In this document: in pieces, positions 1-45,172 of the stretch
Position numbering within the stretch: position 1 is the stretch's first letter
How the letters are laid out: each line of letters opens with the position of its first letter
Assembly (NCBI GenBank): GCA_977017645.1
Contig: OZ360229.1
Location: 26,288,001 to 26,352,000, forward strand
Length of the DNA stretch: 64,000 bases
From: Torpedo marmorata
Lineage: Eukaryota
Direction of reading: 5' to 3'
The notes under the pieces: generated by a model
Seen by the model: the letters and a program-made list of their open reading frames with translations, nothing else
Database searches by the model: none
Told to the model about the DNA's origin: nothing
Made by a program: the position numbers and the translations under genes

Positions 1-97
1 ACATATTGGACTTTGTTAGTAAATTAATTGAAACACGTCAAGAACAAGTATCTCACCTTGCCTCCAAGTGACTATTTGTTGGATTGAAGTCACTATA
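1..97 (+). repeat. 3' end of 5' LTR, BEL-derived copy 1
   Basis: Nearly identical to 10721-10817; the two diverge after position 98. Confidence 0.9.
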
Positions 98-559
98 TGT
101 TTAGTCAATGAAAGTGGTTGTTTGGAACAGAAAATTGAAGGAAAGAAGATAGAATAATCTCTCTGTGCTTTGGACTGATATTTAAAATAAAATGGTGGCC
201 ATCTTGGAGATGCCTCAAGTTAGGGGCAGTTTGTAATCCACATCCATCTGCCATGAATAACAGCCAGAGAGGGATTTAGAGCTTCAAATCTTTTTCTTTT
301 TTTTAAATTATTTTATTTAATTTTTTAAAATCACATAATACATAATTCAAAATATATAGTTTCCAAAATACAGTGATATAAATTTCCTCCCCCCACACCC
401 TCCCACCCCTCCCCAACCCCCCCAACCCCACTATTCTAAAAATAGAAATAGAAAAAGATAAAGAAAAAGAAAAAGAGATTAATAATGAGGAGAGAACCAT
501 CTGAAAACCAATTTTAATCTGGAGGTTAAACTCGCCAATAGATCTGATTTCCACAAATT

Positions 560-2886
560 TCAAATCCTCAAACCCATAACTCTCATATATGGGCTCCAAA
601 TTTTTAAAAAAGAATGATATTTATTACGTAAATTATAAGTAATTTTTTCCAAAGGAATACACGAACGAAGTTCTGCATGCCATCTATCTAAATTCAAATC
701 TAAATCTGATTTCCAAGTAATAGCAATACATTTTTTTGAAACAGCTAAAGCAATACGCAAAAATTCTACCTGATACATATTCAATCTATTCCTAATACTA
801 AATTTTCTAATATCTCCAAATAGAAATAACATAGGGTCCATTGGAAACCTAACATTAAAAACTCTCTCTAAAAAATTCTTAACTTTAAGCCAAAAATCTT
901 GAATCTTTGGACATAACCATGTAGAATGAACAAAAGAACCTACTTCATTCTTACATCTAAAACACAAATCCGACAATGTCGGATTAAATTTCTTTAATTT
1001 TTTTGGTGTTAAATATAATTGATGAAAAAAATTAAATTGTACCAATCTATACCTAACATTAATAACTTTAGTCATACTTAACTTACATAAATCTTCCCAA
1101 TGTTTTTGAGCTATATTAATATTTAAATCTAATTCCCATTTTAATCTTGATTTATGTAATCCTACTTTTGGCATTTTTCTCTGAAATAATTTATACATTT
1201 GAGAAATAAACTTATTAACATTTGCTTTAGTAATTAGTAATTCTAACTCATTATACCTTGGAGCAATCAAATTTTCTCCTAATTTCTCAACCATAAAAGC
1301 TTTAACCTGATAATAAACTAACCATGTATTATCTAATATATCAAATTTTTCTTTCAATCTTTGAAACGTAACAAATCTTCCCCTTCAAAACAATCTTTAA
1401 AATTTTTTATACCTTTTTGAAACCATGTTTTCAATAACTGATTATTCATAGTGAACAATAAAAGTGGATTTTGATATAATGGCATATTTAAAGAAATTAT
1501 TCCTTTCCCACCTATTTCTTTATCTACCTCTGTCCATACTTCCAATAAGTGTTTAATAATCGGTGAATTTTTCTTTTTTACTGATAATAATTTAGAATTC
1601 CACTTATAAATAATATCCTCTTTATAATTTTCTCCCATATTATTTAATTCTATATTAATCCAAGCAGAAGTTTTAGCTAAATCAAAAAATTCATTAACAA
1701 ATTTTAATTGAGCTGCTTTATAATAATATTGAAAATTAGGGAGTTGCATTCCTCCCATCTCATAATTCCATGTTAACTTCTCCATACTCACTCTTGCTAA
1801 CCCCTTTCCATAAAAATTTCCTAACTATAAATTTTAAATCTTAAAAAAAAATTTTTGGAATTCCAAAAGGAATTGATTGAAAAAGATATTGAATTCTTGG
1901 AAAAATATTCATCATAATACAATTTACTCTCCCCATTAAAGTTATAGGTAAATCTTTCCAATTTTCCAAATCTTTCTTTATTTTTGTAAATAAGGGTATA
2001 TAATTTAATTTATATAAATTTTCTAATTTTGTATCCACTTTTACTCCCAAATAATTAATTCCTTCTTTTGCCCACTTAAATTCCGTAACTTCTTTACATC
2101 TAGTATAATCACCTTGAGATAAAGCCATTATTTCACTTTTATCCGCATTAATTTTATATCCAGATATTTCACCATATTCTGTTAATATAATAGCTAAATG
2201 TTGAAGTGATAAAACTGATTTCATCATATATATTAATACATCATCTGCAAACAAACTAATCTTATGCTCTTCCATACCGACTTTAATCCCTACTATATTA
2301 GGATCTGTCCTAATCAATTCAGCTAAAGGTTCTATTGCCAAAACAAATAAAGCTGGTGATAAAGGACAACCCTGTCTTGTAGAACGCGTTAAAGAAAATT
2401 TTGACGATATTTGTCCATTTGTAATTACTTTAGCTGTAGGTTCCTTATATATAGTTTTAATCCAATTTATAAAAGTATTCCCAAAACCAAATTTTTCTAA
2501 CACCTTAAATAAAAAATTCCATTCTAATCTATCAAAAGCCTTTTCTGCATCCAACGTTACCACCAATGGTAAATCTTATTTCTTTTTATGAAAATTAATT
2601 AAACTTAATAATCTAGCTATATTATCTTTAGAATATCTATTTTTAATAAAACCCGCTTGATCTGAATGTATCAAATTTGGTAAATATTTAGCTATTCTAT
2701 TAGCCAAAATTTTTGCCATAATCTTATAATCTACATTTAATAAAGAAATAGGTCTATATGACTCCGTTTTTAATACATCTCTATCTTTCTTTGGTATAAC
2801 TGTAATAATAGCATTCAAAAAGGTTTTTGGTAATAAATGAGTTTCCGTAATCTGATTTAATACTTCCATATATAGGGGTATCAATA
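560..2886 (-). pseudogene. L1 ORF2 reverse transcriptase and C-terminal CCHC region, frameshifted
   Basis: YRPISLLN, LDAEKAFD, RQGCPLSP, LFADD, YLGV and CFRC..H..W.C spread over four ORF pieces. Confidence 0.92.
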
Positions 2887-2916
2887 ACTACAAAAATAGC
2901 GTCAGAGGTAACGCGC

Positions 2917-4044
2917 ATGCGCGAATCAGGAAGATCACGTGAAGCACAGCGACCTCCGTCACAGGAGTACGTTAGAAGAAAAGACGCTCCCCAGACTGTA
3001 TTACAGCTGGGGGAGCTAGAAACATTGTCGGAGTCGGAAACCAGAGAGAGAGAGGCCCAACAGTTTGAAGAAGGGGACAGTGAGGAGTATGAACCATACC
3101 CAGAAGAGGTTATAAAGGATATTGGATCTATAAAGAATACTCAACAAAGAATATTACAAGCCATTACTAGGCTTGAACAACATATGCAGAGTGAATTTAA
3201 AGAAGCAAAACAGAATATGAAGAAAATGGAAACAGCTATGGATAAGATGGAGGTGAGAATGCAAAAGATGGAAGATGATGCTAAAATTAATTATGATGAT
3301 TTTGTGGACTATAGAGAAAGAGTGGATAAATTGGATGATTCATTTACTGGCTGGGAAAAGCAAAGAGATCAGATATTACAAAAGATGGATCAGATGGAAA
3401 ATCAAAGCCGAAGAAATAATGTTAAGATATTGGGATTACCTGAAGGTATGGAGCCGCAAGATCCAACTCAATTTTTTCAAGATTGGCTTATGCAAATATT
3501 TACTTTGGATAAACCAGTGGAGTTGGAGAGAGCCCATAGAATTGGAAGACGAGATCAGATAGATCGGAGACCTCGTCCAGTTTTGCTGAAATGTCTTAGA
3601 TATCAAGATAGAGAAAAAATAATAAGAATGGTGATTCAGAAGTCAAGAGAAAGCGGGACTCCGTTGTTGATTGATGGTAACAGAGTGCTTTTTTATCCAG
3701 ATCTAAGCTCGGCTGTGGTTAATAAGCGGAAGGAGTTTAACCTTACGAAGCAAATATTATGGCAGAAAGGGTATAAGTTCTCGTTTAAATTTCCTGCGAC
3801 TTTGAGAATTCAAAATGATGGAGATAAATCTATCTTATTTATGGATCCCCAGCAAGCACTTATTCATGCGAGAAGTCTTCCTCGTTTGCCTGGAAGTTAT
3901 AATTTGATTGCACGGCGACAAGAGCAAAACCGAGAAGATCAGCAAGGTCAAGTGGTGCCACCGTTGGTTGCGTCAGGAGAAGAAAATATTTTGGTTCAAG
4001 TCGAAGGAGAACAAGAAGAACTGGATTTGGGAGGAGTTAATTGA
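2917..4044 (+). CDS. L1 ORF1p (coiled coil + RRM + CTD); open frame, extreme N-terminus possibly clipped at the inversion junction
   Basis: Heptad region followed by RRNNVKILGLPE, ELERAHR, RPRPVL and FYPDLS motifs typical of L1 ORF1. Confidence 0.85.
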   Translation: MRESGRSREAQRPPSQEYVRRKDAPQTVLQLGELETLSESETREREAQQFEEGDSEEYEPYPEEVIKDIGSIKNTQQRILQAITRLEQHMQSEFKEAKQNMKKMETAMDKMEVRMQKMEDDAKINYDDFVDYRERVDKLDDSFTGWEKQRDQILQKMDQMENQSRRNNVKILGLPEGMEPQDPTQFFQDWLMQIFTLDKPVELERAHRIGRRDQIDRRPRPVLLKCLRYQDREKIIRMVIQKSRESGTPLLIDGNRVLFYPDLSSAVVNKRKEFNLTKQILWQKGYKFSFKFPATLRIQNDGDKSILFMDPQQALIHARSLPRLPGSYNLIARRQEQNREDQQGQVVPPLVASGEENILVQVEGEQEELDLGGVN

Positions 4045-4309
4045 ATTTATACTGTATGGTTTTATATTGATCTATTGGGGGGGGGTGGATATATTGGTAC
4101 TTCTTCCGAACCAATCACCACCTTAGCGGCGGAAGCTGCTACTCGAACAATGGAGGGGGGTAACACTGAGTTATCTGTGTTTTTTCTAAAAGGGTTTTTC
4201 TTATTTCTTTTTCTTTCTTTTATTTCATTTGAGGAGAGAATAGTTAAAATGCAATTTAGGAGGGAATCGCTAATAGACATGATAGATAGACAAAGATTAC
4301 AATGTGGTT

Positions 4310-5749
4310 ATGATGGATTCTAGAAGTATAAATTTAGTAAGTATTAATATAAATGGGCTTAATAATCCAATAAAGAGGAAAAGAACTTTGGCATACATGA
4401 AAAAGTTGAAAGTAGATATAGCTTTTTTACAGGAAACTCATTTAACAGAGGTTGAGCATCAGAAATTAAAAAGAGATTGGGTTGGACATGTTGAAGCTTC
4501 AACATTTAATTCTAAAGCTAGAGGAGTTGCAATTTTAGTTAATAAGAAATTACCTTTTAAAATACAGTCGGTAGTAGTAGATGTGGTAGGTAGATACGTT
4601 TTGGTTAACTGACAGATTTATTCAGAATTTTAGACACTTATGAATTTATATGTTTCAAATCCAGATGATGAACAATTTATTCAAGATGCATTTTTACATT
4701 TATCAGATGCTAAAGATAATATTTTAATTAGGGGGGATTTTAATTGTTGTCTGGATTCAATCATGGATAGGACTTCTAGATCGTTAGTTAGGCCTAAAAT
4801 AGTTAAAAGAATTATAAATTTGATGAAAGATTTGAATTTAATAGATATTTGGAGGAAATTGAATCCTAGAGAGAAAGATTATTCCTTTTATTCTTTTAGA
4901 CATGATTCATATTCTAGGATAGATTTGTTTTTAATATCTTCGCAAATTCAAGATAGAATATCACAGGTATCATATAAAGCGAGAATAATTTCAGATCATT
5001 CACCTTTGTTAATGACATGTGTAATTCCAGAAAAAGAGAAAACTATATTTAATTGGAGATTTGATTCATCTTTATTGAAAAGGATAGATTTTTGTGAATA
5101 TATGAGAAGGGAAATTCAAGAATTTTTGAGGATAAATGATCAATCAATTAATGATAAATTTATAATTTGGGAAACTTTAAAGGCTTATCTTAGAGGTTTG
5201 ATAATAAGTTATTTGGCAAAAATTAAAAAAGATTATTTGAAAGAAGCAGAAAAATTAGAGAAAGAGATTGAGATTATGGAAAAAGATTTACAGAGAAATA
5301 AATCAATTCGTAAGAGAAATTGTTTAATGAGGAAAAAGTTACATTATAATTTATTACAAACGTATAAAACGGAAAAATTAATAGAAAGAATGAAACAAAG
5401 ATGTTATGAATTAGGAGAAAAGGCTCATAAAGTTTTAGCATGGCAATTGAAAAAGGAACAAGTTTCTAAAACTATAAATGCTATAAAGAAAAAAAATACT
5501 GGTGAAATAACTTATAAACCCCAAGAAATAAATGAATCTTTTAAAGATTATTATCAGAATTTATATAGATCTCAGGTTGTTCAGGATGATTTGAAAATTA
5601 ATAGATTCTTATCTAGAATTACTTTACCTAAATTAAATACTCAAAATAAAAATTTTTTAGACTTACCTTTTATGATGAGAGAAGTTAATGAAGTATTATC
5701 GACGTTAAAAAGTGGTAAATCCCCTGGTGATGATGGATTTCCAGTAGAG
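4310..5749 (+). pseudogene. L1 ORF2 APE endonuclease and linker (inverted segment)
   Basis: NINGLN, FLQETH, GDFN, SRIDLF, SDHSP, ending at KSPGDDGFPVE; two in-frame stops at about 4610-4635. Confidence 0.92.
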
Positions 5750-6020
5750 CTTCAAATCTTATAGTAAAGTGTACTATAAATACGTTGGAGAAACCATTTC
5801 TGGAAAATCAGCGATATAATTGATGGATGTTGTGGTGAAACTCGTTTGTTGAATAGCAGCACATTACATTCATCTGAAGTGGTAGGCATAAGTCTGTGGA
5901 TTCCTGTGTATCTTTGGCAAGTTAGAACACAGATTGGATTTGCTGCCGCTGGTCCATTGGGGACTGTTGATTTGGCTAGTGTTGTGTATGCTTGAAGGAC
6001 AGTGGAACAAGATGAGTAAA

Positions 6021-9000
6021 ATGGCTGCAGCAGCCGCTGACGCAGCAACCTCTGATGTTGCTGTTAAGGACCAATGTATTGAAGGCATGCAGGTTGCGGA
6101 TATTAAAGAAGAATTTAAGCGAATTAAACTAGATATAAGTGGAAATAAAAGGGTTCTCATCGCAAGACTGAAGCTGGCAAAGGAAGATGTGGTTTTGTTA
6201 GATGAACAAGAAGATAGCCAATGTGGAAATGGCTGAAATTATGTCACCAAATGATGAAGAAAATGAAGAGGATGAAGATGCAAAAGATGTACAATTCGAA
6301 TTGGTGAAGGAGGTAAGTAAGAAGACAACATATGATCTGCAGGACGAAATACAAGCAAGTGACAGTGTCTCAAATGCTGAAAGCAGGAGAAACAAACGAA
6401 GTTCTGGTTCGAGCTCCAGAGTTTCTCGTACTTCAAGTTCTGCATCGTCACATACAAAGATTGAAGTTGACTTGGCCGCTCTTATTGCACGACAAAATTC
6501 TCTTAAGGATAAACATGTTTTAGAAGAACAGGAGGAGGAAATAAGAGAATAGGAGGAACAGCTGAGGCAGACAACAGGAGGAGCAGCTGAGGCAGAGTCA
6601 ATAGGAGGAGCAGCTAAGGCAGAGCCAACAGGAGGAACAGCTGAGGCAGAGACAACAGGAGGAGCAGCTAAGGCAGAGTCAACAGGAGGAACAGCTAAGG
6701 CAGAGCCAACAGCTAAGGAAGAGACAAGAGCAGCTAAGAAAGAGAAAAGAGCAGCAGGAGCTGAAAACAAATATTGCTATTGCCATGGCCAGAAAGAAAG
6801 CAATAGAAGGCTCAATGGTATCTGGTGTTCAGAGTAAATTATCTAAAGTGTCTGATAATAAAAGGTCATATTTTAAAAAAGAGTCACAGGGAAAGAAACC
6901 AACCAAAAAGGTAGATATTTTAGCAACAGGGGTACAAGACTTGCAAATACAAGGACAAATCCTTCAAGAGCATAGTGGTATCGAGTCACATGTACCAGTG
7001 GTAGGTAACATCTGAAGACAAAGTTGCGGCTTGGGTTCGGTCGAACGATGCAGCTCCCTTGTCATTTGAGTCAAGCATCAGAAATATGGGAGGAACTACA
7101 CCAGTGAGGTTTCCAGATAAATTACCTGTAACAAGAGGTGGTGAACAGAGCAATGTATTGTCATCCAAGGGAAGACAAAATGAAATTGCTGCATCATTGA
7201 TTCAGTTACAGTCTCTCTCTTCTTTGCCTAAGAAAGAGATAAAAACATTTGATGGTGATCCACTTCAGTACCAAGCGTTCATGAGATCTTTCAAACGCAA
7301 TATTGAAAATAAATGCCAAGAAACTGATGAATGTCTTTATTATTTGGAAATGTTCACAGAAGGACATCCAAAAGAACTTGTAAAGAGTTGTCAACATATG
7401 TCCTCAGACAGAGCTAAATCTTTATTAAAACAACATTTTGGCAACAAGCATCGAATTGCTTTAGCTTATATGGATAAAGCTCTTAAATGGACATCAATAA
7501 AACAGAATGATGTAAAGGCTCTACAAGCATATACTCTATTTTTAAGAGGATGTTGTAATGCCATGGAAGATATCGATAATATTCATGAGCTTGAAGTGCC
7601 TGGTAATATGTGAATCATCTTAGAAAAATGATCTTACAAGTTGTGGGATAGATGGAGAAATTTGGCTTGTGATTTACAAGAAAAGTACAGTCGAAGAACT
7701 ACTTTAAAGGACTTGGTAAATTTTCTTGAACGACAGGTGTACATTGAAACAGATCCAATATATGGAAATACCAGAGACAATTCAATGGGGAACAAAGATG
7801 TAAGGAGGTCTAACTCACAGCCTAGTCCGAAATTGAAAAGGAGTACTTTTGCTACTAATGTGTCAGATTAAAAGATAAAGTAAATAAGGAAAAGGAAAGT
7901 TTGACTGATGAGAAGAGTTGTTTGTTCTGTAAAGGTGGACATACTTTGGAAATGTGTTTACGTTTGGGAAAAAAAGGAATATAATGAGATCGCTTTTTTA
8001 AAGGAAAATGGAATATGTTTTAGGTGTCTGTGTAAAGGGCACATCAGAAAAAACTGCGAGAAGCGAATTATCTGTAACATATGCAATTTGAAACATCCTA
8101 GAATTTTTCATATCCATCAAAGAAAGAAGGAATTGGAAAAGGAGCAAACAGAAACAAAGGAAACAACAGAAAACAATGTTATAACCTCGGTTCAGACAAG
8201 TGGTCTTACCGGGGTCGGTATAGATAACTGCGAACTTTTAATAGTGCCTGTACAAGTCAAGACCAATAAAGGGGATGCAACAGTACATACATATGCATTT
8301 CTTGACCTAGGCAGTACTGCATCTTTTTGCATGGAAGGACTAATGAACAAACTTAATATTCAAGGAAGAAGGTCAAGAATTATGTTGAAAACCATGGGAC
8401 AAGAAAAGGTCGGTGAAACCAGCATTGTGTCAGGCTTAGAAGTAGCTGGATTGGATGACAAAAAAATTTGTGATCTTCCAATGTTATATACTCAAAAGAC
8501 TATGCCTGTGCACGAAGGAAACATTCCTCATCAAAATGATTTCCATCATTTGTCTTATCTATGGAAGGTTTATTTACCTGAAGTTAACTCTGAGATAGAA
8601 ATGCTGATTGGTTCAGATGTACCAAAGGTTTTGGAACCACTAGAAGTAATATGGAGTAGAGGGAATGGACCTTACGCTGTTAGAACCAAGCTTGGTTGGA
8701 CAATCAATAGACCATTGGAAAGAAATAATGATATTGCTCAGGAACAGTTAGCGATAAATATTAACAGGATTTCGGTTGTGAAAGTTGATGAGTTAAGGGA
8801 AGAGCAAAAGACTGTGATTAAGAAAGTCACTTTTGAAGAAAAGAAAATAGATCAATGTGAAAATAAATCAAAGGTATTTAAAACAACATTGAAAGAATTA
8901 TTTTCATCAGAAATGGATGAAAATGAAGTATTAGAAGATGTTGCAAATAATACTATTGATTATTCATGTGTATTTGAATCAGATACAGGAATAAAACTAG

Positions 9001-9892
9001 TGACTGAGAACAAATTTGAAAGTAGGTTTTGTAGTTCGGAGGTTACAACAGACAAAGGCCATGAAGAAATGTTGCAATGTGGTGTAAAACTGGAGAACAC
9101 AGGAAATTGTGCTGCTCGGAATGAAGAAGAATGTGAATGATAATTTAAATGCAATTAAATTCAGAGAACAAAATGTTGAAAGGGGAATTGGAAATATTAG
9201 ATAATCATGAAAACAGTAAACAGAAAGATTTAATTGTAAGTAAAATTCGCAAAATCAGAAAGCGGAAGAAAGGAATGACTGCTGAAGAAATAAATACAGT
9301 TATTGAGGAAAGAGATTCAGCATTATCAAAATGTAAAAGGTTAGAGGAAGAGATTAATATTTTGAAAGAGAACAAGTTATTGGTTAAAACACAAAACAGT
9401 TGATTATAGAAAACAATCAAGAATGTAAATTGAATGTTCAGCTACAAACAATGAAAAAAGTGATATTGTATTGCAGAAATGTAACAAGCAAGATGAAGAA
9501 ATTCAAAAATTTCAAGTTTACCACAACAGGGTTGATAATAGAAACACCAATGTCTCACATAATATTTTCACTTCAGATCAAGTTATTAATTTCTCGCAAG
9601 GAACTGAGACGGAATTGAAAGCTGCAAAATTGGATTTGGAATTGCATGAAAAGGCAATAGAAATCAGAGTGGTTAAAGAGACTCGTTTATTAAAATCGAG
9701 AAGATCAGATAAATATTCAAATTCTAGTTCTAAGAGTTTAAATTCTTCACATGAGAAGTGGAATGCTGAAGAAAGGAATAAAGTGAAACGACATGCTGAA
9801 GAAGTGCCTCGTGTTAAATTTTGTTTGAGGAAGATTTGAGGTTTACTGGTCGACGTTTTAACTCAAATATTCTGGAGATAAAAGAACTTTGA
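6021..9892 (+). pseudogene. Chimeric polyprotein: SAP domain - BEL gag - zinc knuckles - aspartic protease - MIPOL1-like coiled coil (disrupted)
   Basis: ORF pieces at 5934, 6202, 6785, 7059, 7641, 7908, 9149, 9400 and 9471 are colinear with copy 2. AAAATGG start at 6021 and stop after KEL at 9890. Confidence 0.8.
6546..6765 (+). repeat. About 27-bp coding minisatellite (GGAGGAGCAGCTAAGGCAGAGCCAACA; EEQLRQSQQ)
   Basis: About six clear units plus degenerate ones read directly. Confidence 0.85.
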
Positions 9893-10074
9893 GGAGACAT
9901 TGTAATTATTATGGACGATTCAGCTCCTCGAAACTCCTGGATACTTGGAAAAATTATTAGACTATTCAGGACAAAAGGGGACTTGTGCGTCAAGTTCGAA
10001 TTAAAACTAAGACCGGCTTTCTAAATAGACCTATTAACAAGGTCTGCCTTCTGTTGGAGACAGAGGAACTTTGA
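9893..10074 (+). pseudogene. BEL integrase C-terminal tail remnant (DUF5641-like)
   Basis: GDIVIIMDDSAPRNSWILGKII..DKRGLVRQVRIKTKTGFLNRPINKVCLLLE. Confidence 0.8.
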
Positions 10075-10274
10075 TAAATACAACCTGACTTTATTTGTTG
10101 TTGTATACTTCACAGGTTACAGACTTTTGTTGATTCAGAGTTATGGTAAACTCTGGTCTTATGAAGAAAGAAGATTTGTATATTGTTTGAATGTTATATG
10201 GTTATTGTTATTTGTAATTGATTGTGTAGTTATTATTTAAGACATTGTGTCTCGTTATAATAATTAGGGGCCGG

Positions 10275-10817
10275 TGTAAGAGCCGTAGGTTTAGTTACAT
10301 ACCTTCTTCGCGGCGTTCCGATGGTCTCGGCGGGGTTCGGAGGAGTCGCGGTGTTTAGTAGTTCGTGCTGGGCCTATTTAGTACTCTGCACATGCGCGAG
10401 AGTGCCGACGGGCGCATGCGCAGTTGGGAAGTGACGGCAGTATGCGCGGTGGAGTATGCGCGGTGAGCATGCGCGAATCGGGGAAGAAAGAATAGAAAAA
10501 GATGGCGGCTTACAGGAGGGTGAGTGAGATCGCTATATCTTTCATTGACCGTCAAAAAAATGTCAAAAGAATGTTTAATGTAACGTTTAAAGGAAGTTTA
10601 TAGATGTTTTGAAGAATCGTTATTAATCATCGTTATCAAGAATTGTTTATATTTCATTAAAAAAGATATTTAAGTTATTGAAGATTGCTACAAGTCATCA
10701 TGTGTTAATAAACATTTTGAACATATTGGACTTTGTTAGTAAATTAATTGAAACACGTCAAGAACAAGTATCTCACCTTGCCTCCAAGTGACTATTTGTT
10801 GGATTGAAGTCTCTATA
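10275..10817 (+). repeat. 3' LTR of BEL-derived copy 1
   Basis: Starts TGTAAGAGCCGTAGG after the PPT; CpG-rich 5' part; AATAAA near 10707; end matches 1-97. Confidence 0.88.
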
Positions 10818-26477: not shown

Positions 26478-27369
26478 TGTTACAAATTCAAACCAGCAAC
26501 GACAGAAGACGCAATGCAAAAGGGGTAAAATTGAAATTACTATTTATTAAACACAATTAAACATGTAATTTCACAACAATTAACCCCACTATAAACGTCT
26601 ATAAACACTATTCTTATCTAAAAGGTGTGTGTGTGTGTAAAGCCCAGACCATTACAGTCTGTGCCCAACCCTTATGTAAAAATGGAAAAACTTTCCCCAA
26701 AAAACCCCAGGTCAGTCATAAAAAACAAGTCAGTCAAAAAAACAAAAGAATAATTCAGTCCACAAGATTCACTCTCTAAGTTCAGGCTTCAATTCAGCTC
26801 TGGGTCTGGTAGAAGTACTTCTGAATGAACGTTGGAGAGAGACAATGACAGTTATGCTTACAAATACTTGTTTTCTTCTCTGATGACGTCCCCTTCTTGT
26901 AGGTTCATAAGGATTGCAAGTTCCAGATCAGTATACCACTGATTTAGGCGTATGCTTGAATCTCACAGCTAGTCTCGCTGATCTCACGCCTGTTCTCCAC
27001 AGAAGTTGCTTTTTCTCAGAATTTCTCTCTGAGACAGGAGGCCATGTGCTATTCTGTCAGTCTTTCTCTGACTTTTGCACACGCCTGGATTTGGCTGTGT
27101 CTTGTAGCCTTGCAACTCACAACTGTGTCTGCTTTGCAGAGATCTGCCCCTGCTTTTTGCAGAAGTGAAACAAATGTATCTTGTCCAGGCTGTCTCTGTC
27201 TCTCTCTCTGTCTGGGTACACCAAGAGTGCAACAATGTATCTTGTCTGGGTACACCAAGTAGCTGGGGAAGTTAACTCTTTCAGTACCTGGCCCCAGTGT
27301 ATACTCCAAAAGAATTCTTCCTTCCTGCTGACCGTCCGCAGTCCAAATGGTCAGTCATGGTCCATAACA
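26478..27369 (-). mobile_element. Solo LTR, 892 bp, in Gypsy 1 protease
   Basis: Reverse complement of 20924-21823; TSD ATAC; removal restores LYIVHTKGPALFG. Confidence 0.92.
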
Positions 27370-32927: not shown

Positions 32928-33507
32928 TCTCCAACTCAGGATGATGGGTAACTTGAGAGGAATATTTCAATGGAGGTGTTTTCTCATGCCCTTGTCTTGA
33001 GTAGTGGAAGCAGCAGATTCAGGAGATGCTGTGAAAGAAGATTTGCTGCATTTTCATTGAGTGTTTGGTGTACCACTAGTGGCTGGAGTGAATGTTTATT
33101 GTTGTGGGAACGCGTTACGTCATCACGCAAGTTACGTGGGTGACGGGATTACATAAGCGACATGGCAAGGGCGCGGTTTAGTTTTGTGTGCACCATTTTA
33201 CTTAGTGAATAAAGTATGCCAACTGCTCCACAAGAAGTGTCTGAATTAATGTGGATATGACAGACTGGCGACGAGGATTAAAAAAAAATCCAAACTCCGG
33301 ACGACGGAGCTACAGGATTTCAGCTAAAAAGAAATCAGAAGTAAAGGAATTTCGTCGGAATTAATGTCAGAAGACAACAGAACTTCTAAGAAAAGACTAT
33401 CTCTCTATATTGTAGGGACGAAAGGACCCGCATTGTTGGGAAGAGATTGGTTGACACACATTCCACTAGATTGGAAGGAAATTTGGGCCGTGAAGAAGGT
33501 ACAAACA

Positions 33508-35608
33508 AGATTTACCATTAGTATTAACGCTAGATGCTGAAAAGGCTTTTGATAAATTAGAGTGGAATTTTTTATTTAAGGTATTGGAGAAATTTGGCTT
33601 CGGAACTACATTTATTAATTGGATTAAAACTATATATAAAGAACCATCTGCTAAAGTAATTACAAATGGACAAATTTCTTCAAGATTTCCCCTGACTAGA
33701 TCTACTAGACAAGGATGTCCTTTGTCACCAGTGTTATTTACTTTGGCGATAGAACCTTTGGCAGAATTAGTTAGAAAAGATGTTAAAATTGTAGGTATTA
33801 AAGTTGGAACGGAAGAAGATAAAATTAGTTTATTTGCAGATGATGTATTGATATATATGACAAAACCTATTACATCTTTAGTACAATTGTCTGCTTTATT
33901 GAGAGAGTATGGGGAAATATCTGGATATAAAATTAACTCTGATAAAAGTGAAATTATGGCATTATCACAAGGGGATTATAGTAAATGTAAAGATATTACA
34001 CAATTTAAATGGGCAAAAGAAGGAATTAAATATTGGGAATAAAGATTGATACAAAATTGGCTAATTTATATAAATTAAATTATTTACCATTGTTTATGAA
34101 AATAAAAAAAATTTAGAAAATTGGAAAGATTTACCTATAACTTTAATGGGAAGAGTAAACTGTATTAAAATGAATGTTTTTCCAAGAATTCAATATCTTT
34201 TTCAATCAATTCCTTATGATTTAACTAAATCTTCTGCTTGGATTAGAATAGAATTAAATAATATAGGAGAAGATACTAAAGAAGGAGTTATTTATAAATG
34301 GGATTCTAAATTAATATCAACAAAAAGGAAAAATTCTCCTATTCTTAAACATCTGTTAGAAATTTGGAGTAAGATGGATAAAGAAATAGGAGGAAAAGGA
34401 ACGATTTCTCCTGATGCCTTTATATCAAAATGAACTTATTCCATTTACTATTAATAATCAATTATTTAAAATTTGGTTTCAAAAAGGAATTAAGAAAATA
34501 AATAATTGTTTTGAAGCTGGGAAATTTATTACTTTTCAAAGAATGAAAGATAAATTTAATATATTGGATAATACACTTTTTTCTTATTATCAAATTAGAG
34601 CATTTTTGGTTGAGAAATTAGGTTATAATCTGATTCTACCAAGACAGAATGAATTAGAATTATTAGTTACTAAAGGAGATGTAAATAAATTTATCTCTCA
34701 AATGTATAAATTGTTTCAGAGAAAAGTTCCTAAAGTAGGAATTCATAAATCAAGATTAAAGTGGGAATTAGATTTGAATGTAATAATAGATGAAAATCAT
34801 TGGAAAGAATTATGTAAGTTAAGTATGACGAAGATTATTAATGTCAGATATAGATTAGTACAATATAATTTTTTTTCATCAATTATATTTAACACCCAAA
34901 AAATTAAAGAAATTTAATCCGACATTATCAGGTTTATGTTTTAGATGTAATAAAGAGGAAGGTTCTTTTGTACATTCTACATGGTTTTGTCCAAAAGTTT
35001 ATGATTTTTGGTTGAAAGTTAAAATGTTTTTAGATAAAGTATTTAAGATTACATTTCCAATGGACCCTATGTTATTTTTATTTGGAGATATTAAAAAACT
35101 TAGTATTAAGATGAAATTAAATATGTATCAAATAGAATTTTTGCAAATTGCTTTAGCTGTTTCAAAGAAATGTATTGCTATTACTTAGAAATCTGATGTA
35201 GATTTAGGGTTAGAAAGATGGCATGCAGAACTTCGTTCATGTATACCACTTGAAAAAATTACTTACAATTTACGCAATAAGTATCATTTCTTTTTAAAAA
35301 TTTGGAGCCCATATATGAAAGTTGTTGGTTTAAGAATTTGAAAATCTCTGGATATCGGATCTCTGGCGAACCTAACCTCCATAATAGAATTAGTTTATAG
35401 ATTTAATTTTTAGATTGACATTCTCCTTATTCTATCTTTTTCTTTCTTTCTTTTTATTTTTATTTTATTAGATTAGTAGGGATGGGAGGGTTAGGGAGGG
35501 GAGGGTGGGAGAGGGGGTGAAAATATATCACAAGTATTTTGATAATTTTATATTTTATCTTATGTATTTTGTGATTTAAAATTTTAAATAAAATATTTTT
35601 TTAAAAAA
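33508..35608 (+). mobile_element. L1 LINE, 5'-truncated (RT to poly(A))
   Basis: LDAEKAFD, RQGCPLSP, LFADD; 15-bp TSD AAGAAGGTACAAACA at 33493-33507 and 35609-35623. Confidence 0.92.
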
Positions 35609-36480: not shown

Positions 36481-38293
36481 TATAACCATATAACCATATA
36501 ACAATTACAGCACGGAAACAGGCCATTGGGCCCTTCCAGTCTGCACCGAACCAAACATTCCTATCTAGTCCCACCTACCTGCACCCTGCCCATAACCCTC
36601 CACTTCCTTCTCATCCATATACTTGTCCAACTTTTTCTTAAATAATAAAATTGACTCTGCCGCCACTACTTCTCCCGGAAGCTCATTCCACACCGCTACC
36701 ACTCTCTGAGTAAAGAAGTTCCCCCTCATGTTACCTCTAAACCTCTGCCCCTTAACTCTTAGCTCATGTCCTCTTGTTTCAATCTCTCCTACTCTTAATG
36801 GAAATAGTCTATCCACATCCACTCTGTCTATCTCTTTCATAATTTTAAATACCTCTATCAAATCCCCTCTCAACCTTCTACGCTCCAAAGAATAAAGACC
36901 TAATAGGCTCAATCTCTCCTTGTACTCTACCTTCTTAAACCCAGGTAACATTCTGGTAAACCTTCTCTGCACTCTCTCCACTTTGTTGATATCCTTCCTA
37001 TAATTTGGCGACCAGAACTGCACACAGAACTCTAAATTAGGCCGCACCAAAGCCTTATATAATCTCAACATCACTTCCCAACTCCTATATTCTATGCAAT
37101 GATTGATAAAGGCCAGCATACTAAATGCCTTCTTCACCACCCTATTCACATGAGTTTCCACCTTCAGGGAATGATGCACCGTTATTCCTAAATCTTTCTG
37201 CTCTTCTGTATTCATCAATGCTCTCCCATTTACTACATATGTCCTGTTCTGATTCTTCTTACCAAAATGAAGCACCTCACACTTATCAGCATTAAACTCC
37301 ATCTGCCATTTTTCAGCCCACTTTTCTAACCAGCCCAAATCCCTCTGCAATCCTTGAAAACCTTCATTATCCACTATTCCACCTATCTTAGTATCATCTG
37401 CATATTTACTAATCCAGTTTACCACCCCATCATCTAGATCATTGATATATATAACGAACAACAATGGGCCCAATACAGATCCCTGAGACACACCGCTGGT
37501 CACCGGCCTCCAACCTGACAGACAATTATCCACTACCACTCTCTGGCCTCTCCCTTCCAGCCAATGTTCAATCCATTTGACTATCTCAGAATTTATACCT
37601 AAAGACTGCACCTTCCTAACTAACCTTCCATGCGGAACCTTATCGAAGGCCTTACTGAAGTCCATATAGACAACATCCACTGTGCTACCCACATCCACAT
37701 TCCTAGTCACCTCTTCAAAAAATTCAATCAGATTGGTGAAACAGGACCTTCCGCTCACAAATCCGTGTTGAGAGTTCCTGATCAGACCCTGCCTATCCAG
37801 ATATTTATAAGTACTATCTCTGAGAACTTTCTCCATTAATTTACCTACCACAGACGTCAAACTTACAGGCCGATAATTGCCAGGCTTCCTCCTTGAACTC
37901 TTTTTAAATAACGGAACCACATGCGCAATACGCCAATTCTCCGGCACTATCCCCATCTCTAATGACATTTGGAAAATCACCATCAGAGCCTCTGCTATTT
38001 CTTCACTTACTTCTTAAAGGTCCTGGGGAAGATCCCGTCGGGTCCCGGAGACTTATCCACCTTTATATGCCTCAAAAGCCCTAACACTACATCTTTCGTA
38101 ATCCCTATATTCTCCATATTTACCCAATTTGCTTTTTTTATCTCGCATATCTCAATATCCTTCTCCTTGGTGAATACCGAAGAAAAGAAACTGTTCAATA
38201 TCTCCCCCATTTCTCTAGGCTCCACACACAGTTTTCCGCTCTGATTCTCTAAGGGACCAATTTTGTCCCTCGCTTTCCTTTTACCATTAACGT

Positions 38294-38869
38294 TATTATG
38301 GTGACTTCGATCCAACAATAGTCACCTGGAGGCTAAGTGATATACTTGTCTTTGACGCGTTTTAATTAATTTACCAACAAAGTCCAATATGTTCAAAAGT
38401 CTTTATTTACACACGTGACTTGCAGTAATCTTCAATGACTTAAATATAAACAGTTCTTGAAAACGATGTATGATGAGTTTCTTTAAATGATTCTTTAACC
38501 AATTCCAAACTACAAAGTAACCAGTTCAATGTTCTGAAACGATGTATAAGACGTTATAAAACGGTCAATAAAGATATGGAAATTTCACTCACCCTCCTAC
38601 ATCTTATTCTTTCTCCTATTCTCTCATTCGCGCATGCCCCGTCGCTCCCATACCACTGCGCACCCTCCATCGCGCATACTACATTTCCCAATATACACCG
38701 CGCAAAATGACGTCACTCCAGACTGCGCATGCGCCCGTCGGCACTCCAGCGCATGCGCAGAGCACAGAACGGGCCGAGGACAGCCTACAGACAACGCGAG
38801 CGCTCCACAACCCGACGAGACATCGGAGCGCCGCAGCAAAGGTAAGTTAATGAGCCTACGGCTCTTACA
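38294..38869 (-). repeat. 3' LTR of BEL-derived copy 2
   Basis: Direct repeat of 43527-44101. Confidence 0.95.
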
Positions 38870-39065
38870 CCGGCCCCTAATTATTATAATTAGATGCAAT
38901 GTCTTGAATAATAATTACACTATAAATTATAAATAACAATAACCATAACATTCAAACAATACAAATCTTCTTTCTTCCTTGTTCATAAACCTAGAGTTTA
39001 CCATAACTCTGAAAAGTCTGTAACCTGTGAAATATACAACAACAAATAAAGTCAGTTTATATTTA

Positions 39066-39250
39066 TCAAAGTTCCTCTGACTCCAACAAAAGAGACAGAC
39101 CTTGTTAATAGGTCTGTTTAAAAAACCAGTCTTAGTTTCAATTCACACTTGACGCACAAGTCCCCTTTTGTCTTGAAAAGTCTCAATAATTTTTCCAAGT
39201 AACCAGGAGTTTCTTGAAGTTGAATCATCCATTATAATCACAATGTCTTT
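39066..39250 (-). pseudogene. BEL integrase C-terminal tail remnant
   Basis: DIVIIMDDSTSRNSWLLGKIIETFQDKRGLVRQV..KTGFLNRPINKVC. Confidence 0.8.
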
Positions 39251-42200
39251 TTAAAGTTCTTTTATCTCCATAATCTTTGAGTTAAAACGTCAACCAGTAA
39301 ACCTCAAATCTTCCTCAGACAAAATAGATACAGTTTTTCTTTTGAATTTAACACAAGGCACTTCTTCAGCATGTCGTTTCACTTTATTCCTTTCTTCAGC
39401 ATTCCACTTCTCATGTGAAGAATTTAAACTCTTAGAACTAGAATTTGAATATTTATCTGATCCTTTCGATTTTAATAAACACGACTGTTTAACCACTCTG
39501 GTTTCTATTGCTCTTTCCTGCAATTCCAAATCCAATTTTGCAACTTTCAATTCAGTCTCAGTTCTTTCTGAGAAATTAATAATTTGATCTGAAGTCAAAA
39601 TATCATGTGATACATTGATATTTCCATTGTCAATCCTGTTGCGACAAACTTGAAATTTTTTAATTTCTTCATCTTGTTTGTTACATTTCTGCAATGCAAT
39701 ATCACATTCTTTCTGCATTGTTAATTGTTGAACATTCAATTTACATTCTTGATTGGTTTTTAAAGACAACTGTTTTGTGTTATTAACCAATAACTTGTTC
39801 TCTTTCAAAACATTAATCTCTTCCTCCAAACTTTTACATTTTGATAATGCTGAATCTCTTTCCTCAATAACTGTATTCATTTCTTCAGCAGTTATTCTTT
39901 TCTTCCGCTTTCTGACTTTGCGAGTTTTACTTACAATTAAATCTTTCTGTTTACTGTTTTCTTGATTATCTAATATTTCCAATTCCCCTTTAAACATTTT
40001 GTTCTCTGAATTCAATTGCATTAAATTATCATTCACATTATTCTTTATTCCATCAGCACAATTTTCTGTGTTTTCCAGTTTTACATCACATTGCAATATT
40101 TCTTCATTAGTTTTGTCTTTTGTAATCTCTGAACTACAAAATCTACATTCAGATTTGTTTTCAGTCACTTGTTGTATTCCTGTATCTGATTCAATTACAC
40201 ATGATCAATAGTATTATTTGCAACATCTTCTAATACCTCACTTTCATCCATTTTTGATGAAAATAATTCCTTCAATGTTGTTTTAAATACCTTTGATTTA
40301 TTTTCACATTGATCAGTTTTCTTTTCTTCAAAAGTGATTTTCTTATTCACAGTATTTTGCTCTTCGCTTAACTCTTCAACTTTCACAACCGAAATTCTAT
40401 TAATATTTATCGCTAACTGTTCCTGAGCAATATCATTATTTCTTTCCAGTGGTCCATCGATTGTCCAACCAAGCATGGTTTTAACAGCATAAGGTCCATT
40501 CCTTTTACTCTCTATTACTTCTTTTGGTACCAAAACCTTTGGCACATCTGAACCAATCAGCATTTCTATCTCAGAATTAATTTCAGGTAAATAAACCTTC
40601 CACAGATAAGCTAAATGATGAATATCCCTTTGATGAGGAATATTTCCTTCATTCACAGGCATAGTCTTCTGAGTATATACACTTGGAAGATCACAAAATT
40701 TTTTGTCATCCAATCCAGCAACCTCTAAGCCTGAAACAATGTTAGTTTCAACAACCTTTTCTTGTCCCATGGTTTTTAACATAATTCTTGATCTTTTTCC
40801 TTGAATATTAAGTTTATTCATTAGTCCTTCCGTGCAAAAAGATGCAGTGCTGCCTGGATCTAGAAATGCATATGTTATTACTATTGCATCCCCTTTCTTG
40901 GTCTTGACTTGTACAGGCACTATCGAAAGTTTGCAGTTATTCACACCGGCCCCGGTAAGACCACTTGTCTGAACCGAGGTTATAACATTATTTTCTGTTG
41001 TTTCCTTTGTTTCTGTTTGCTATTTTTCCAATTCCTTGTTTCTGTTATGGATATGAAAAATTCTAGGATGTTTCAAATTGCATATGTTACAATTAATTCG
41101 CTTCTCGCAGTTTTTACTGATGTGTCCTTTACACAGATAGCTAAAACATATTCCATTTTCCTTTAAGAAAGCGATCTTTTCCTTATGTTCCTTCTTTTCC
41201 AATCGTAATCACATTTCCAAAGCATGTCCACCTTTACAGAACAAACAACTCTTTTCATCAGGCAAACTTTCCTTTTCCTTATTTACTTTGTCCTTTTCTT
41301 TACTTATAACTTGCACATTAGTAGCAAAAGTACTCCTTTTCACTTCGGACTAGACTGTGTGTTAGACTTCCTTACATCTTTGCCGATTGAATTATCTCTG
41401 GTATTTCCATATAGTGGATCCATTTCAACGTACACCTGTCGTTCAAGAAAATTTACCAAATCCTTTAAGGTAATTTTTCGACCGTAATTTACTTGTAAAT
41501 CACAAGCCAAATTTCTCCATCTATCCCATAACTTGTAAGGTAATTTTTCTAAGATGATTCGCATATTACTATGCTCTTCAAGCTCACGAATATTATCGAT
41601 TTCTTCCATAGCATTACAACATCCTCTTAAAAACAGAGTATATTCTTGCAGAGCCTTTACATCATTTTGTTTTATTGATGTCCATTTAAGAGCTTTATCC
41701 ATATAAGCTAAAGCAATTCGATGCTTGTTGCCAAAATATTGTTCCAGTAAAGCCTTAGCTTTGTCTAATCCTCTTTTTGAAGACATTTGTTTACAACTCT
41801 TTACCAGTTCTTTTGGATGTCCCTTTGTGAACATTTCCAAATAATAAAGACATTCATCACAATCTTGGCATTTATCTTCAATATTGCGTTTGAAAGATCT
41901 CATAAATGATTGATATTGAAGTGGATCACCATCAAAAATTTGTATCTCCTTCTTGGGTAAAGAAGAGAGAGACTGTAACTGAAACAATGATGCAGCAATT
42001 TCATTTTGTCTTTCCTTGGATGACAATACATTGCTCTGTTCACCGTCTCTTGTTGCATGCAATGTATCTGGAAACCTCACTGGTGTAGTTTCTTCCATAT
42101 TTCTGATGCTTGACTCAAATAACAAAGAAGCTGCTTCGTTCGACCGAACCCAAGCCGCAGCTTTGCTTTCAGATGTTACCATTGATACATGTGACTCGAT

Positions 42201-43070
42201 ACCAATATGTTCTTGAAAGGTTTGTCCTTGTATTTGCAAATCTTGTATCCTTGATTCTAAAATATCTATCCTTTTGGTTGGTTTCTTTTCCTGTGATTCT
42301 TTTTTTAAATATGACCTTTTATTATCAGACACTTTAGATAATTTACTTCTAGCACCAGATACCATTGAGCCTTCTATTGCTTTCTTTTCTACCTTGGCAA
42401 TAGCAATGTTTGCTTCCAGCTCCTGCTGTTCTTTTATCTGCCTTAGCTGCTCCTTCTCTTGTCTTAGCTGCTCCTCCTCTTGTTTTAGCTGCTCCTTTAT
42501 CTGCACCTCCTTTTGTCTTATCTGCTCCTCCTTTTGTTCTAAAATATGTTTATTCTTAAGCGTTTTTTGTTGTGCAAGAAGAGCGGCCAATTGAACATCA
42601 ACCTTTGTACGTGACGATGCAGAACTTGAAGTACGAGAAACTCTGGAGCTCGAACCAGAACTTCTTTTGCTTCTCCTGTTTTCAGCATTTGAGACACTGT
42701 CACTTGCTTGTATTTCGTCCTGCAGTTCATATGTTGTCTTCATACTTACCTCTTTATCCAATTCAAATTGTATATCCTTTGCATCTTCAACCACTTCAAT
42801 TTCTTCATCATTTGTTGACACAATTTCAGCCATTTCCATTTTATCTTCTTGTTCATCTAATGAAGCTGCCTCTTCATCCTTTGCCTGCTTCAATCTTTCG
42901 ATAAGAACCTTTTTATTTCCACTTATGTCCTTTTTCAGTCGCTTCAATTCTTCTTTAATATCCGAAACCTTCATGTCTTCAATACGTTGGTCCTCAACAG
43001 CAACATCAGCGGTTGCTGCGTCAGCTGCTGATACATCAGTAGCTGCTGTATCAGAGACTGCTGCGGCCAT
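39251..43070 (-). pseudogene. Chimeric polyprotein: SAP - BEL gag - zinc knuckles - protease - MIPOL1-like coiled coil (few lesions)
   Basis: ORFs 41340-43157, 41020-41202, 40195-40944 and 39290-40168 join once lesions absent from copy 1 are corrected; protease AFLDPGS. Confidence 0.85.
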
Positions 43071-43526
43071 TTTACTCGTCTTGTTCCTCTTTCCTTCAAG
43101 CATACACAACACTAGCCAAATCAACAGTCCCCAATGGACCAGCGGCAGCAATTCCAATCTGTGTTCTTACTTGCTAAAGATACACAGAAGGAGTCCAAAG
43201 ACTTATGCCTACCACTTCAAATGACTGTAATGTGCTGCAATCCACAAACGAGTTTCAACCACAACATCTGTCAATAATATCACTGATTTTCCAAAAATGG
43301 TTTCTCCAACGTATTTATAGGACACTTTACTATAAGATTTGAAGCTTTAAATCCCTCTCTGGCTGTTATTCATGGCAGATGGATGTGGATTACAAACTGC
43401 CTCCAACTCGAGGCATCTTCAAGATGGCCACCATTTTATTTTAAATATCAGTCCAAAGAACAGAGAGATTATTCTATCTTCTTTCCTTCAATTTTCTGTT
43501 CCAAACAGCCAGCTCTTTATTGACTA

Positions 43527-44101
43527 TATTATGGTGACTTCGATCCAACAATAGTCACCTGGAGGTTAAGTGCGATACTTGTCTTTGACGCGTTTTAATT
43601 AATTTACCAACAAAGTCCAATATGTTCAAAAATCTTTATTTACACACGTGACTTGCAGTAATCTTCAATGACTTAAATATAAACAGTTCTTGAAAACGAT
43701 GTATGATGAGTTTCTTTAAATGATTCTTTAAACAATTCCAAACTACAAAGTAACCAGTTCAATGTTCGAAACGATGTATAAGACGTTATAAAACGGTCAA
43801 TAAAGATATGGAGATCTCACTCACCCTCCTACATCTTATTCTTTCTCCTATTCTCTCATTCGCGCATGCCCCGTCGCTCCCATACCACTGCGCACCCTCC
43901 ATCGCGCATACTACATTTCCCAATATACACCGCGCAAAATGACGTCACTCCAGACTGCGCATGCGCCCGTCGGCACTCCAGCGCATGCGCAGAGCACAGA
44001 ACGGGCCGAGAACGGCCTACAGACAACGCGAGCGCTCCACAACCCGACGAGACATCGGAGCGCCGCAGCAAAGGTAAGTTAATGAGCCTACGGCTCTTAC
44101 A
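43527..44101 (-). repeat. 5' LTR of BEL-derived copy 2
   Basis: Begins TGTAAGAGCCGTAGG on the minus strand; direct repeat of 38294-38869. Confidence 0.95.
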
Positions 44102-45172
44102 AACGTATTTGTAAAAACCTTTTGGATTAATTTTCACCCTGCTTGCTATAGTCTCTTCATACCTTCTTTTAGCTTTCCTAATTCCTCTTTTAAGATTCTT
44201 TTTACATTCAATGTATTTTTCAAACATCTCCTTATTTCCATGCTTCTTATACTTAATGTACGCCTCCCTTTTTTTTCGAACCAAGTTTCCAATATTCCTC
44301 GAAAACCACGGCTCTCTCAAACCTTTTGCCCCTCCTTTTAACCTAACGGGAACATAAAGCTTTTGCACTCTCAAAATTTGATCTTTAAAAGAATTCCATC
44401 TCTCTACTACATCCTGTCCATAAAACAAATTGTCCCAATGCACACCCTGTAAGTCCTTTCGCATCTCCTCAAATCTAGCTTTTCCCCAATCAAAAACCTC
44501 AACCCTTGGCCCTGACTTATCTCTTTCCATAATGACATTGAAGCTGATGGCATTATGATCACTGGACCCGAAGTGCTCGCCAACACAAACCTCCATCACT
44601 TGACCTATCTCATTTGCTAACAGTAGATCTAACACTGCTCCTTCTCAGGTCGGTACCTCTACATATTGTTATAAAAAACTATCCTGCACACATTTCACAA
44701 ACTCCAACCCATCCAGCCCTTTCACAGAATGTGTTTCCCAATCTATATGTGGAAAATTAAAATCTCCCATAATCACAACCCTGTGCTTATCACAAATATC
44801 CACTACCTCCCTACAGATTTGCCCCTCTAGGTCTCGGTCCCCTCCGGGTGGTCTATAATACACCCCTACAAGTGTAACTTCTCCTTTCCCACTTCTCAGT
44901 TCCACCCAAATAGCCTCTGTGGACGAGCCCTCTAATCTATCCTGCCTAAGCACCGCTGTAATATTCTCCCTGACAAGCAATGCAACACCACCTCCTCTTG
45001 CCCCTCCGACTCTATCACACCTAAAGCAACGAAACCCAGGGATATTCAGCTGCCAATCACATCCCTCCTGCAACCATGTCTCACTGATTGCTACCACCTC
45101 ATACTTCCAAGTATCAATCCACACCTTCAGCTCATCCACCTTTTTTACAATACTCCTGGCATTAAAATATAT

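Follow-up and report, generated by a model that had tools for sequence, protein, structure and literature searches.

The 64,000-nucleotide stretch of Torpedo marmorata DNA analysed here (the window) carries, at positions 38294-44101, a BEL/Pao long terminal repeat (LTR) retrotransposon whose pol region, judged from its sequence, is replaced by a cassette that derives from the spliced RNAs of BRCA1, MIPOL1 and Elongin A, all three host genes, and that lies in sense orientation and in frame. Within the cassette the MIPOL1 exons are scrambled in the pattern characteristic of a back-spliced circular RNA (circRNA), a putative circle that we infer from genomic DNA. The element is not an autonomous BEL/Pao retrotransposon but apparently a helper-dependent derivative that resembles an LTR-mediated chimeric retrocopy.

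The loss of pol is seen by comparison with relatives in the same genome that retain it. One of these, L066, is matched by Pfam to SAP, DUF1759, RVT_1, Peptidase_A17, integrase and DUF5641, and has the order protease (PR), reverse transcriptase (RT), RNase H and integrase (IN) that is missing in the window element. The two are 89-92% identical from the 5' part through the end of the protease and have the same LTR start and purine tract, but their alignment breaks off at window position 40357 and restarts at 39248. RT, RNase H and the integrase core are absent from the window element, as the initial annotation had stated, and from the cassette-bearing loci. The sequence after the gap is identified as an integrase tail because of its 91% DNA identity to the pol-bearing relative, and not by a match to DUF5641. 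Among the domains suggested earlier for the element, SAP, DUF1759 and MIPOL1 were matched, but DUF5641 went undetected by Pfam in the window piece tested.

The cassette consists of intronless, partial, sense host pieces lying between the arms of the element, and splice sites of all three donors are crossed. In this genome the host genes contain introns and are located on contigs C61 (BRCA1), C40 (MIPOL1) and C41 (Elongin A). The first part of the cassette of an older subfamily with a longer cassette (subfamily B) gave three matches among 1.84 billion representative proteins, all of them BRCA1, and in pairwise tests the window pieces matched skate BRCA1 with E values of 4e-17 and 9e-14. The host BRCA1 exon, whose acceptor the element spans, is 89-91% identical to subfamily B and 77% identical to the window copy. 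The last part of the subfamily B cassette matched human Elongin A (E 1e-54) as well as the Pfam Elongin_A domain, and the element unites two Elongin A exons, separated by 10.7 kb in the host, at 92-97% identity. The genome has two Elongin A paralogs with introns (C41:39013234-39024252 and C25:175318134-175337048); the first is the donor, and the paralog on C25 reaches 77% identity only. The stub left in the window aligns to subfamily B over 61 residues. The Elongin_A domain kept by subfamily B scores above the Pfam cut-off at 136 places, host exons included; the 100 matches listed of 126 do not contain the point of entry in host Elongin A. Subfamily B (L051, L052 and L053) has different LTRs from subfamily A and several in-frame cassette deletion variants, some of which retain the first half of the Elongin_A domain entire. 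A fused protein was found neither among the 120 listed of 182 near-length MIPOL1 matches, nor among eight longer matches (all with MIPOL1 Pfam domains), nor among the three matches to the BRCA1 piece (all BRCA1).

Protein searches with the MIPOL1 region gave 182 matches, the best of which were from rays; the best near-length match was stingray MIPOL1 (52% over 123 amino acids, E 1.7e-25), and Narcine MIPOL1 matches the element at 66%. A genome search with the stingray protein returned intronless matches of up to 86% that belong to subfamily B. The order of the MIPOL1 segments is reversed in the element, with residues 345-452 first and residues 194-280 after them (P0001). Read in the direction of transcription, with a slash at each splice site, the host gene on C40 has a large exon ending in ATAAG/gt, an exon at 64,591,881 that starts taatag/CAGGGCTGAAAGC, an exon that starts cag/TTCTAG and, further on, an exon that ends TACTACAG/gt at 64,385,712, followed by one that starts cag/CTTA. 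The element reads TACTACAG/CAGGGCTGAAAGC; that is, the donor exon runs base-exactly into an acceptor exon located 206 kb upstream in the host gene. The donor pattern has a single match genome-wide, so that this exon has no tandem duplication in the assembly; of three matches to the acceptor pattern, one is inside the host gene, at that distance upstream of the donor. No gap separates the two exons in the window element (39639/39638), in the second copy in the window, in subfamily B or in any of the 26 copies of the window's own subfamily (subfamily A) that cover the site. Three ordinary MIPOL1 junctions are also crossed. The acceptor is a tandem TAG-CAG, of which the element and the stingray model use the proximal AG and the Narcine model the distal one. 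All MIPOL1 cargo falls within the exons of the implied circle, and no poly(A) is present. Since both splice sites appear to be in phase 2 (P0001 and P0136), the circle of about 259-260 codons would be in frame.

The initial annotation had read the region after the protease as a MIPOL1-like coiled coil and had counted two host-derived domains, SAP and MIPOL1. The MIPOL1 match is real, but MIPOL1 supplies only two pieces of the region, in scrambled order, and the rest is BRCA1 and a stub of Elongin A; host cargo is thus present and comes from three genes, of which BRCA1 and Elongin A had been overlooked, as had the back-splice junction, subfamily B and the copy number, and SAP is native to the element. 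The view of SAP as a captured host module replacing pol is ruled out, because the SAP N-terminus recurs in relatives from this genome that still have pol, a finding that places SAP in the autonomous family. In L066 the domain is found with a Pfam E of 5.2e-8 and has a nonsynonymous divergence (dN) of 0.04 to the window family; the N-terminal SAP and acidic region of this pol-bearing element lie at L066:1016-1345. No host source of SAP was matched among 359 candidates (restricted to 458-2000 amino acids), Atlas matches were all <0.9, and PDB gave only the SAP of MKL1 (E 8e-5). The autonomous lineage may have captured SAP at an earlier time. The available part of an account of autonomous BEL/Pao elements does not mention SAP (0 occurrences; PMC3118150).

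The same annotation had proposed a helper-dependent BEL/Pao element with its own Gag-PR, a view that is supported, and a search for autonomous relatives with matching LTR ends, which are present. L066, L022 and L028-L030 have LTRs that are 81-95% identical to those of the window element and share its LTR start and purine tract, and the pol-bearing relatives agree with it in their termini and in the region directly after the 5' LTR. L066 is one of several frames of ~2,000 codons listed by a Pfam DUF5641 search of the genome. The eight top DUF5641 loci were rejected as close relatives, being members of a different BEL family (71-78% identical to L066). The pol region has no sequence match in PDB. 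L028-L030 are part of a tandem array of pol-bearing copies on C22 with a period of ~7,325 bp.

The window element is complete, as had been described: its LTRs are near-identical (566 of 575 aligned bases match, with one gap), the 5-bp target site duplication (TSD) AACGT is found on both sides, and the purine tract directly precedes the 3' LTR (Table 1). It is inserted in a CR1 long interspersed nuclear element (LINE), the frame of which resumes beyond the element. Gag (DUF1759), knuckles and protease are in one frame, a BEL/Pao feature, and the SAP and DUF1759 domains were confirmed by Pfam. The open reading frame (ORF) described earlier has the expected length of ~1,270 codons from the first in-frame Met at 43103 to the stop at 39292, but in the window copy it is divided into four natural pieces of 608, 61, 274 and 304 amino acids by breaks near 41345, 41208 and 40204, none of which is common to most copies. 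Of the three reported knuckles, one runs into a stop and another is without a Cys in this copy. The reported protease has its LDPGS motif but remains below the Pfam cut-offs (Asp_protease_2 E 0.094); its DNA is ~92% identical to that of a relative bearing Peptidase_A17, RVT_1 and rve. Canonical LTR termini are TG...CA, and BEL/Pao elements have TSDs of 5 bp. In the window element and the tested copies the termini are TG...TA, as in the pol-bearing relatives, and the canonical CA end is absent; one subfamily B LTR has a CA end. The TA ends (window 38294 and 44101; L022, L028 and L066) and the lack of TGG at the primer-site position suggest that priming and integrase recognition may be non-standard.

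The genome assembly spans 6.2 Gb; a DNA search scored 39 of 19,070 candidates, and 29 other loci were fetched for comparison. Twenty-four of these have the cassette, four run into pol and one has neither. All eight tested copies have 5-bp TSDs, TG...TA ends and LTR pairs that are 97-98% identical. The genome-wide survey that had been suggested earlier returned many copies but no complete ORF at any of 12 checked loci, which stay open naturally over 477-1,216 codons at most. A cassette-specific 28-mer has 24,047 genome matches (<=2 mismatches), an RT 28-mer 1,367 (<=2 mismatches) and a subfamily B 27-mer 126 (<=1 mismatch), with no matches for the reversed controls; these are marker matches and not curated copies, and the figures would be halved if the assembly duplicates haplotypes. 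By this measure subfamily A exceeds the pol-bearing relatives ~18-fold and subfamily B ~190-fold. If copies are near full length, the family makes up ~140 Mb, or ~2% of the assembly. An assembly artefact is ruled out by four public runs, under four other organism labels, that cover 26-30 of 30 bins. In run X2 the element is seen as long contigs evenly covered at a depth near 18, as if one organism had very few copies; runs X4 and X5 have thousands-fold depth over 38294-44101 and differ at the terminal stop site. Five cassette markers form a tandem array with a 4,964-bp period at C1:1498241-1518124.

Subfamily B is the older of the two, with LTR pairs that are 88-93% identical, and its cargo is 89-97% identical to the host exons; the cargo of subfamily A is 71-85% identical to them. 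Over gag-PR the identity of subfamily A to the pol-bearing relative is 91-99%, with dips to 88% and 75% near the 3' end, and its identity to subfamily B is 67-83%. Just ahead of the cassette subfamily A parts from the pol-bearing relative, and its 3' join is a new one that leaves a longer integrase tail. Synonymous divergence between A and B is 0.55-0.59 in gag-PR versus 0.24 in the cassette, a contrast that fits transfer of the cassette onto a newer helper backbone. The window cassette (39293-40356) is A-rich and C-poor (A 0.44, C 0.10) compared with subfamily B (A 0.36, C 0.17), a shift that suggests mutational bias during replication.

The reading frame was analysed after dropping L029 and L030, which nearly duplicate L028 in tandem, together with L035 and L041, which occupy the same places as L052 and L053; the counts of recent variants and of host-polarised sites also leave out L022, L025 and L028, which have no cassette. 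The ratio of divergence at codon position 3 to that at positions 1 and 2 is 0.91 in the cassette (confidence interval (CI) 0.65-1.23), 1.50 in gag and 2.26 in the protease, and host-polarised fixed cassette sites are distributed 27/20/29 over the three positions. Over the long term the amino acids of the cassette thus drift, with no enrichment for third-position change, and the position-3 signal of gag-PR may come from the helper lineage rather than from the non-autonomous copies. The frame has nevertheless been kept open: no stop ahead of the terminal one is common to more than 2 of 25 copies, compared with a neutral expectation of 5.8-7.2 (P(0) <= 0.003). The indels that distinguish A from B (3, 24, 120, 81, 195 and 3 nt) are all multiples of three; among private indels 14 of 65 are.

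We consider it probable that the family is a helper-dependent BEL/Pao chimera built by serial template switching, with a cassette that serves mainly as translated filler. A spliced BRCA1 mRNA, a back-spliced MIPOL1 circle and a spliced Elongin A mRNA would have been co-packaged, and template switching during reverse transcription would have put them in place of RT-RNase H-integrase, in sense orientation and in their native frames. The position of the back-splice inside a complete LTR element and between two captured RNAs points to such co-packaging and template switching, by which host RNAs are copied into LTR-mediated retrocopies (PMC5131818). The cassette would have been born in the older backbone of subfamily B, recombined onto a newer helper backbone, and shrunk by in-frame deletions, with amplification to ~24,000 copies. 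RT and IN would be supplied in trans by the ~1,400 pol-bearing relatives; mobilisation in trans is suggested because young, TSD-flanked copies lack pol. An open cassette would keep the stop near its native distance from the 3' LTR, so that the RNA could escape the decay that befalls a transcript whose 3' untranslated region (UTR) is long. Such escape is the most likely reason for retention of the frame, retroviral RNAs with long 3' UTRs being targets of nonsense-mediated decay (PMC5580461, PMC2925335).

A number of observations weigh against this account. The NG86 net omega of the cassette is just under 1 (0.64, CI 0.45-0.94), variants shared among the 25 recent copies are 20 nonsynonymous to 17 synonymous versus 123 to 33 for singletons (Fisher p 0.003), and position 3 accounts for 9 of the 12 shared variants in the MIPOL1 part, one of seven regions tested (p 0.004), so that some protein-level constraint may exist. 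The shared-variant test finds no constraint on the protease (13:3) or on gag and PR pooled (p 0.54), and thus gives no support for a need of the element's own Gag-PR. The 195-nt deletion measures 191 and 194-197 nt against two of four comparators, and two stops are fixed, both within the last 15 cassette codons. At the back-splice point a 3-nt similarity, AGC, would permit a template switch; most of the other joins were compared with a single parent sequence. The constraint signals speak for a rival view, in which the origin is the same but the cargo has been taken into use as protein, with the coiled coil of MIPOL1 (in subfamily B, alternatively, the core of Elongin A) acting for example in oligomerising Gag-PR or in binding host factors; in addition, every piece is sense and in its native frame, and subfamily B keeps the Elongin_A domain above the Pfam cut-off. 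We nevertheless regard exaptation as unlikely, given that long-term fixed changes are even across codon positions, that the successful subfamily has lost the Elongin A core together with large parts of every piece, and that the subfamily keeping the core is by far the rarer in marker matches.

The MIPOL1 scramble could also have arisen without a circle, by two template switches on an mRNA that was linear, or from a transcript formed by trans-splicing or by linear repetition of exons. The AGC similarity spans the join, and a study of circRNA pseudogenes cautions that non-colinear junctions can have other causes (PMC4897178). Both ends of the junction, however, are exactly on splice sites, the donor pattern is single-copy, there is no MIPOL1 sequence from beyond the implied circle, and a mouse circ-Mipol1 is listed in PMC9888537, the available part of which does not give its exon boundaries. 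A double template switch at this join is possible but unlikely from the sequence, and we judge a non-circular origin as a whole improbable. Less probable still is that the cargo acts as camouflage, pieces of essential genes making small-RNA silencing costly to the host, as set out for maize captures (PMC13317346). The donors are indeed housekeeping or genome-maintenance genes and the subfamily B cargo is close to the host exons, but the cargo of the amplified subfamily is probably too distant for small-RNA cross-talk, and a preserved reading frame is not predicted. Returning to serial template switching, a bolder form of it can be put forward tentatively: a circRNA would have been packaged and copied across its back-splice, the cassette would be selected, with an open frame required and the MIPOL1 coiled coil possibly used as protein, and the element would have outgrown its helper ~18-fold to reach ~2% of the genome.

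Plant TR-GAG elements are non-autonomous LTR elements that have Gag and depend on a helper. The window family shares Gag-PR, LTRs and a short TSD with autonomous BEL/Pao elements (PMC3118150), but differs from these and from TR-GAG in that pol is replaced by host cargo and not simply deleted, and in its TG...TA ends. Maize Bs1 is likewise an LTR element with partial exonic pieces of three host genes, one chimeric frame and switch points common across copies (PMC5131818, PMC13317346); it is a plant element with 1-5 copies and one piece out of frame, whereas the family described here is vertebrate BEL/Pao, with ~24,000 marker matches, all pieces in frame and one donor back-spliced. Animal LTR-mediated chimeric retrocopies also carry sense host sequence without introns between the arms of an LTR element; more than one gene sometimes contributes, and a mosquito BEL case is among them (Tan et al., 2016; PMC5131818). 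Those are mostly young and low-copy, in contrast to a dominant mobile family with a changed helper backbone, and the available text contains no occurrence of 'circular' or 'circRNA'. The mouse circRFWD2 pseudogenes have a non-colinear genomic exon junction, no poly(A) and LTR sequence nearby (Dong et al., 2016; PMC4897178). They number 33 high-confidence copies, are linked to LTRs by flank enrichment only, and are ascribed to a mechanism described as mysterious; the circle piece of the window family, in contrast, lies in the Gag-PR frame of a complete LTR element and has another captured RNA on either side. We found no description of this BEL/Pao chimera family in the literature, a search that stopped short of Repbase, Dfam and the supplements of PMC4897178 and PMC5131818, where it could therefore be catalogued. 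The family is new in its putative circRNA donor, backbone change and scale; the kind itself is already known, with Bs1 and circRFWD2 the closest cases.

The route by which circRNAs are copied into genomes was left open in the circRFWD2 work (PMC4897178). If true, the proposed origin would supply a base-exact mechanism for circRNA retroposition, and the locus would preserve, as a fossil in the genome, a circRNA of a cartilaginous fish. LTR chimeras of several genes have been known as rare and low-copy, and here a family of ~24,000 copies scatters BRCA1, MIPOL1 and Elongin A fragments genome-wide. Its thousands of copies offer a natural experiment on whether a frame is kept open for RNA stability or for protein, and they will confound gene annotation and read mapping for the three genes.

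Table 1. Features of the retroelement and of its second copy in the window
Feature	Coordinates	Strand	Remarks
5' LTR	43527..44101	-	575 nt; TG...TA ends; TSD AACGT at 44102-44106
Primer-site position	43508..43526	-	directly after 5' LTR; no TGG start; near-identical in pol-bearing relatives
SAP domain	42882..42983	-	Pfam E 3.8e-9; acidic and Ser-rich region next; native to pol-bearing family
BEL/Pao Gag core, DUF1759	41514..41936	-	Pfam E 6e-6
Cys/His knuckles	~41060-41250	-	downstream of Gag core
Aspartic protease	40378..40935	-	LDPGS at 40849-40863, motif also in pol-bearing relative
Captured BRCA1 piece	39944..40356	-	~aa 200-350 of skate BRCA1, shortened; spans host splice acceptor
Captured MIPOL1 piece 1, downstream exons	39639..39943	-	~aa 349-452 of stingray MIPOL1; ends exactly at host donor site
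Back-splice junction	39638..39639	-	downstream exon end abuts upstream exon start
Captured MIPOL1 piece 2, upstream exons	39494..39638	-	starts at aa 193/194; internally shortened
Elongin A stub	39249..39493	-	frame stop at 39292; Elongin A core domain kept only in older subfamily
Integrase tail remnant, untranslated	39070..39248	-	91% identical to pol-bearing relative
Purine tract ahead of 3' LTR	38870..38882	-	identical in pol-bearing relative and copy 2
3' LTR	38294..38869	-	576 nt; TSD AACGT at 38289-38293
Second, diverged copy (copy 2)	1..10817	+	~85% identical; same cassette; junction at 9526/9527; L1-type LINE with 15-bp TSD inside

The second copy had been reported as spanning 1-10817; it exists, but the L1-type insertion makes up ~5.45 kb of that span, and the window edge truncates the 5' LTR of the copy. 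The inserted LINE, of L1/Tx1 type, occupies 293-5745 with its 5' part on the plus strand and its RT part on the minus strand, an inverted arrangement like that left by twin priming, and a related copy is located at ~33500-35350. Elsewhere in the window, long inverted repeat arms at 20924-21823 and 26478-27369, 95-99% identical and ~5-6 kb apart, may belong to a DNA transposon or to two LINEs in inverted orientation.

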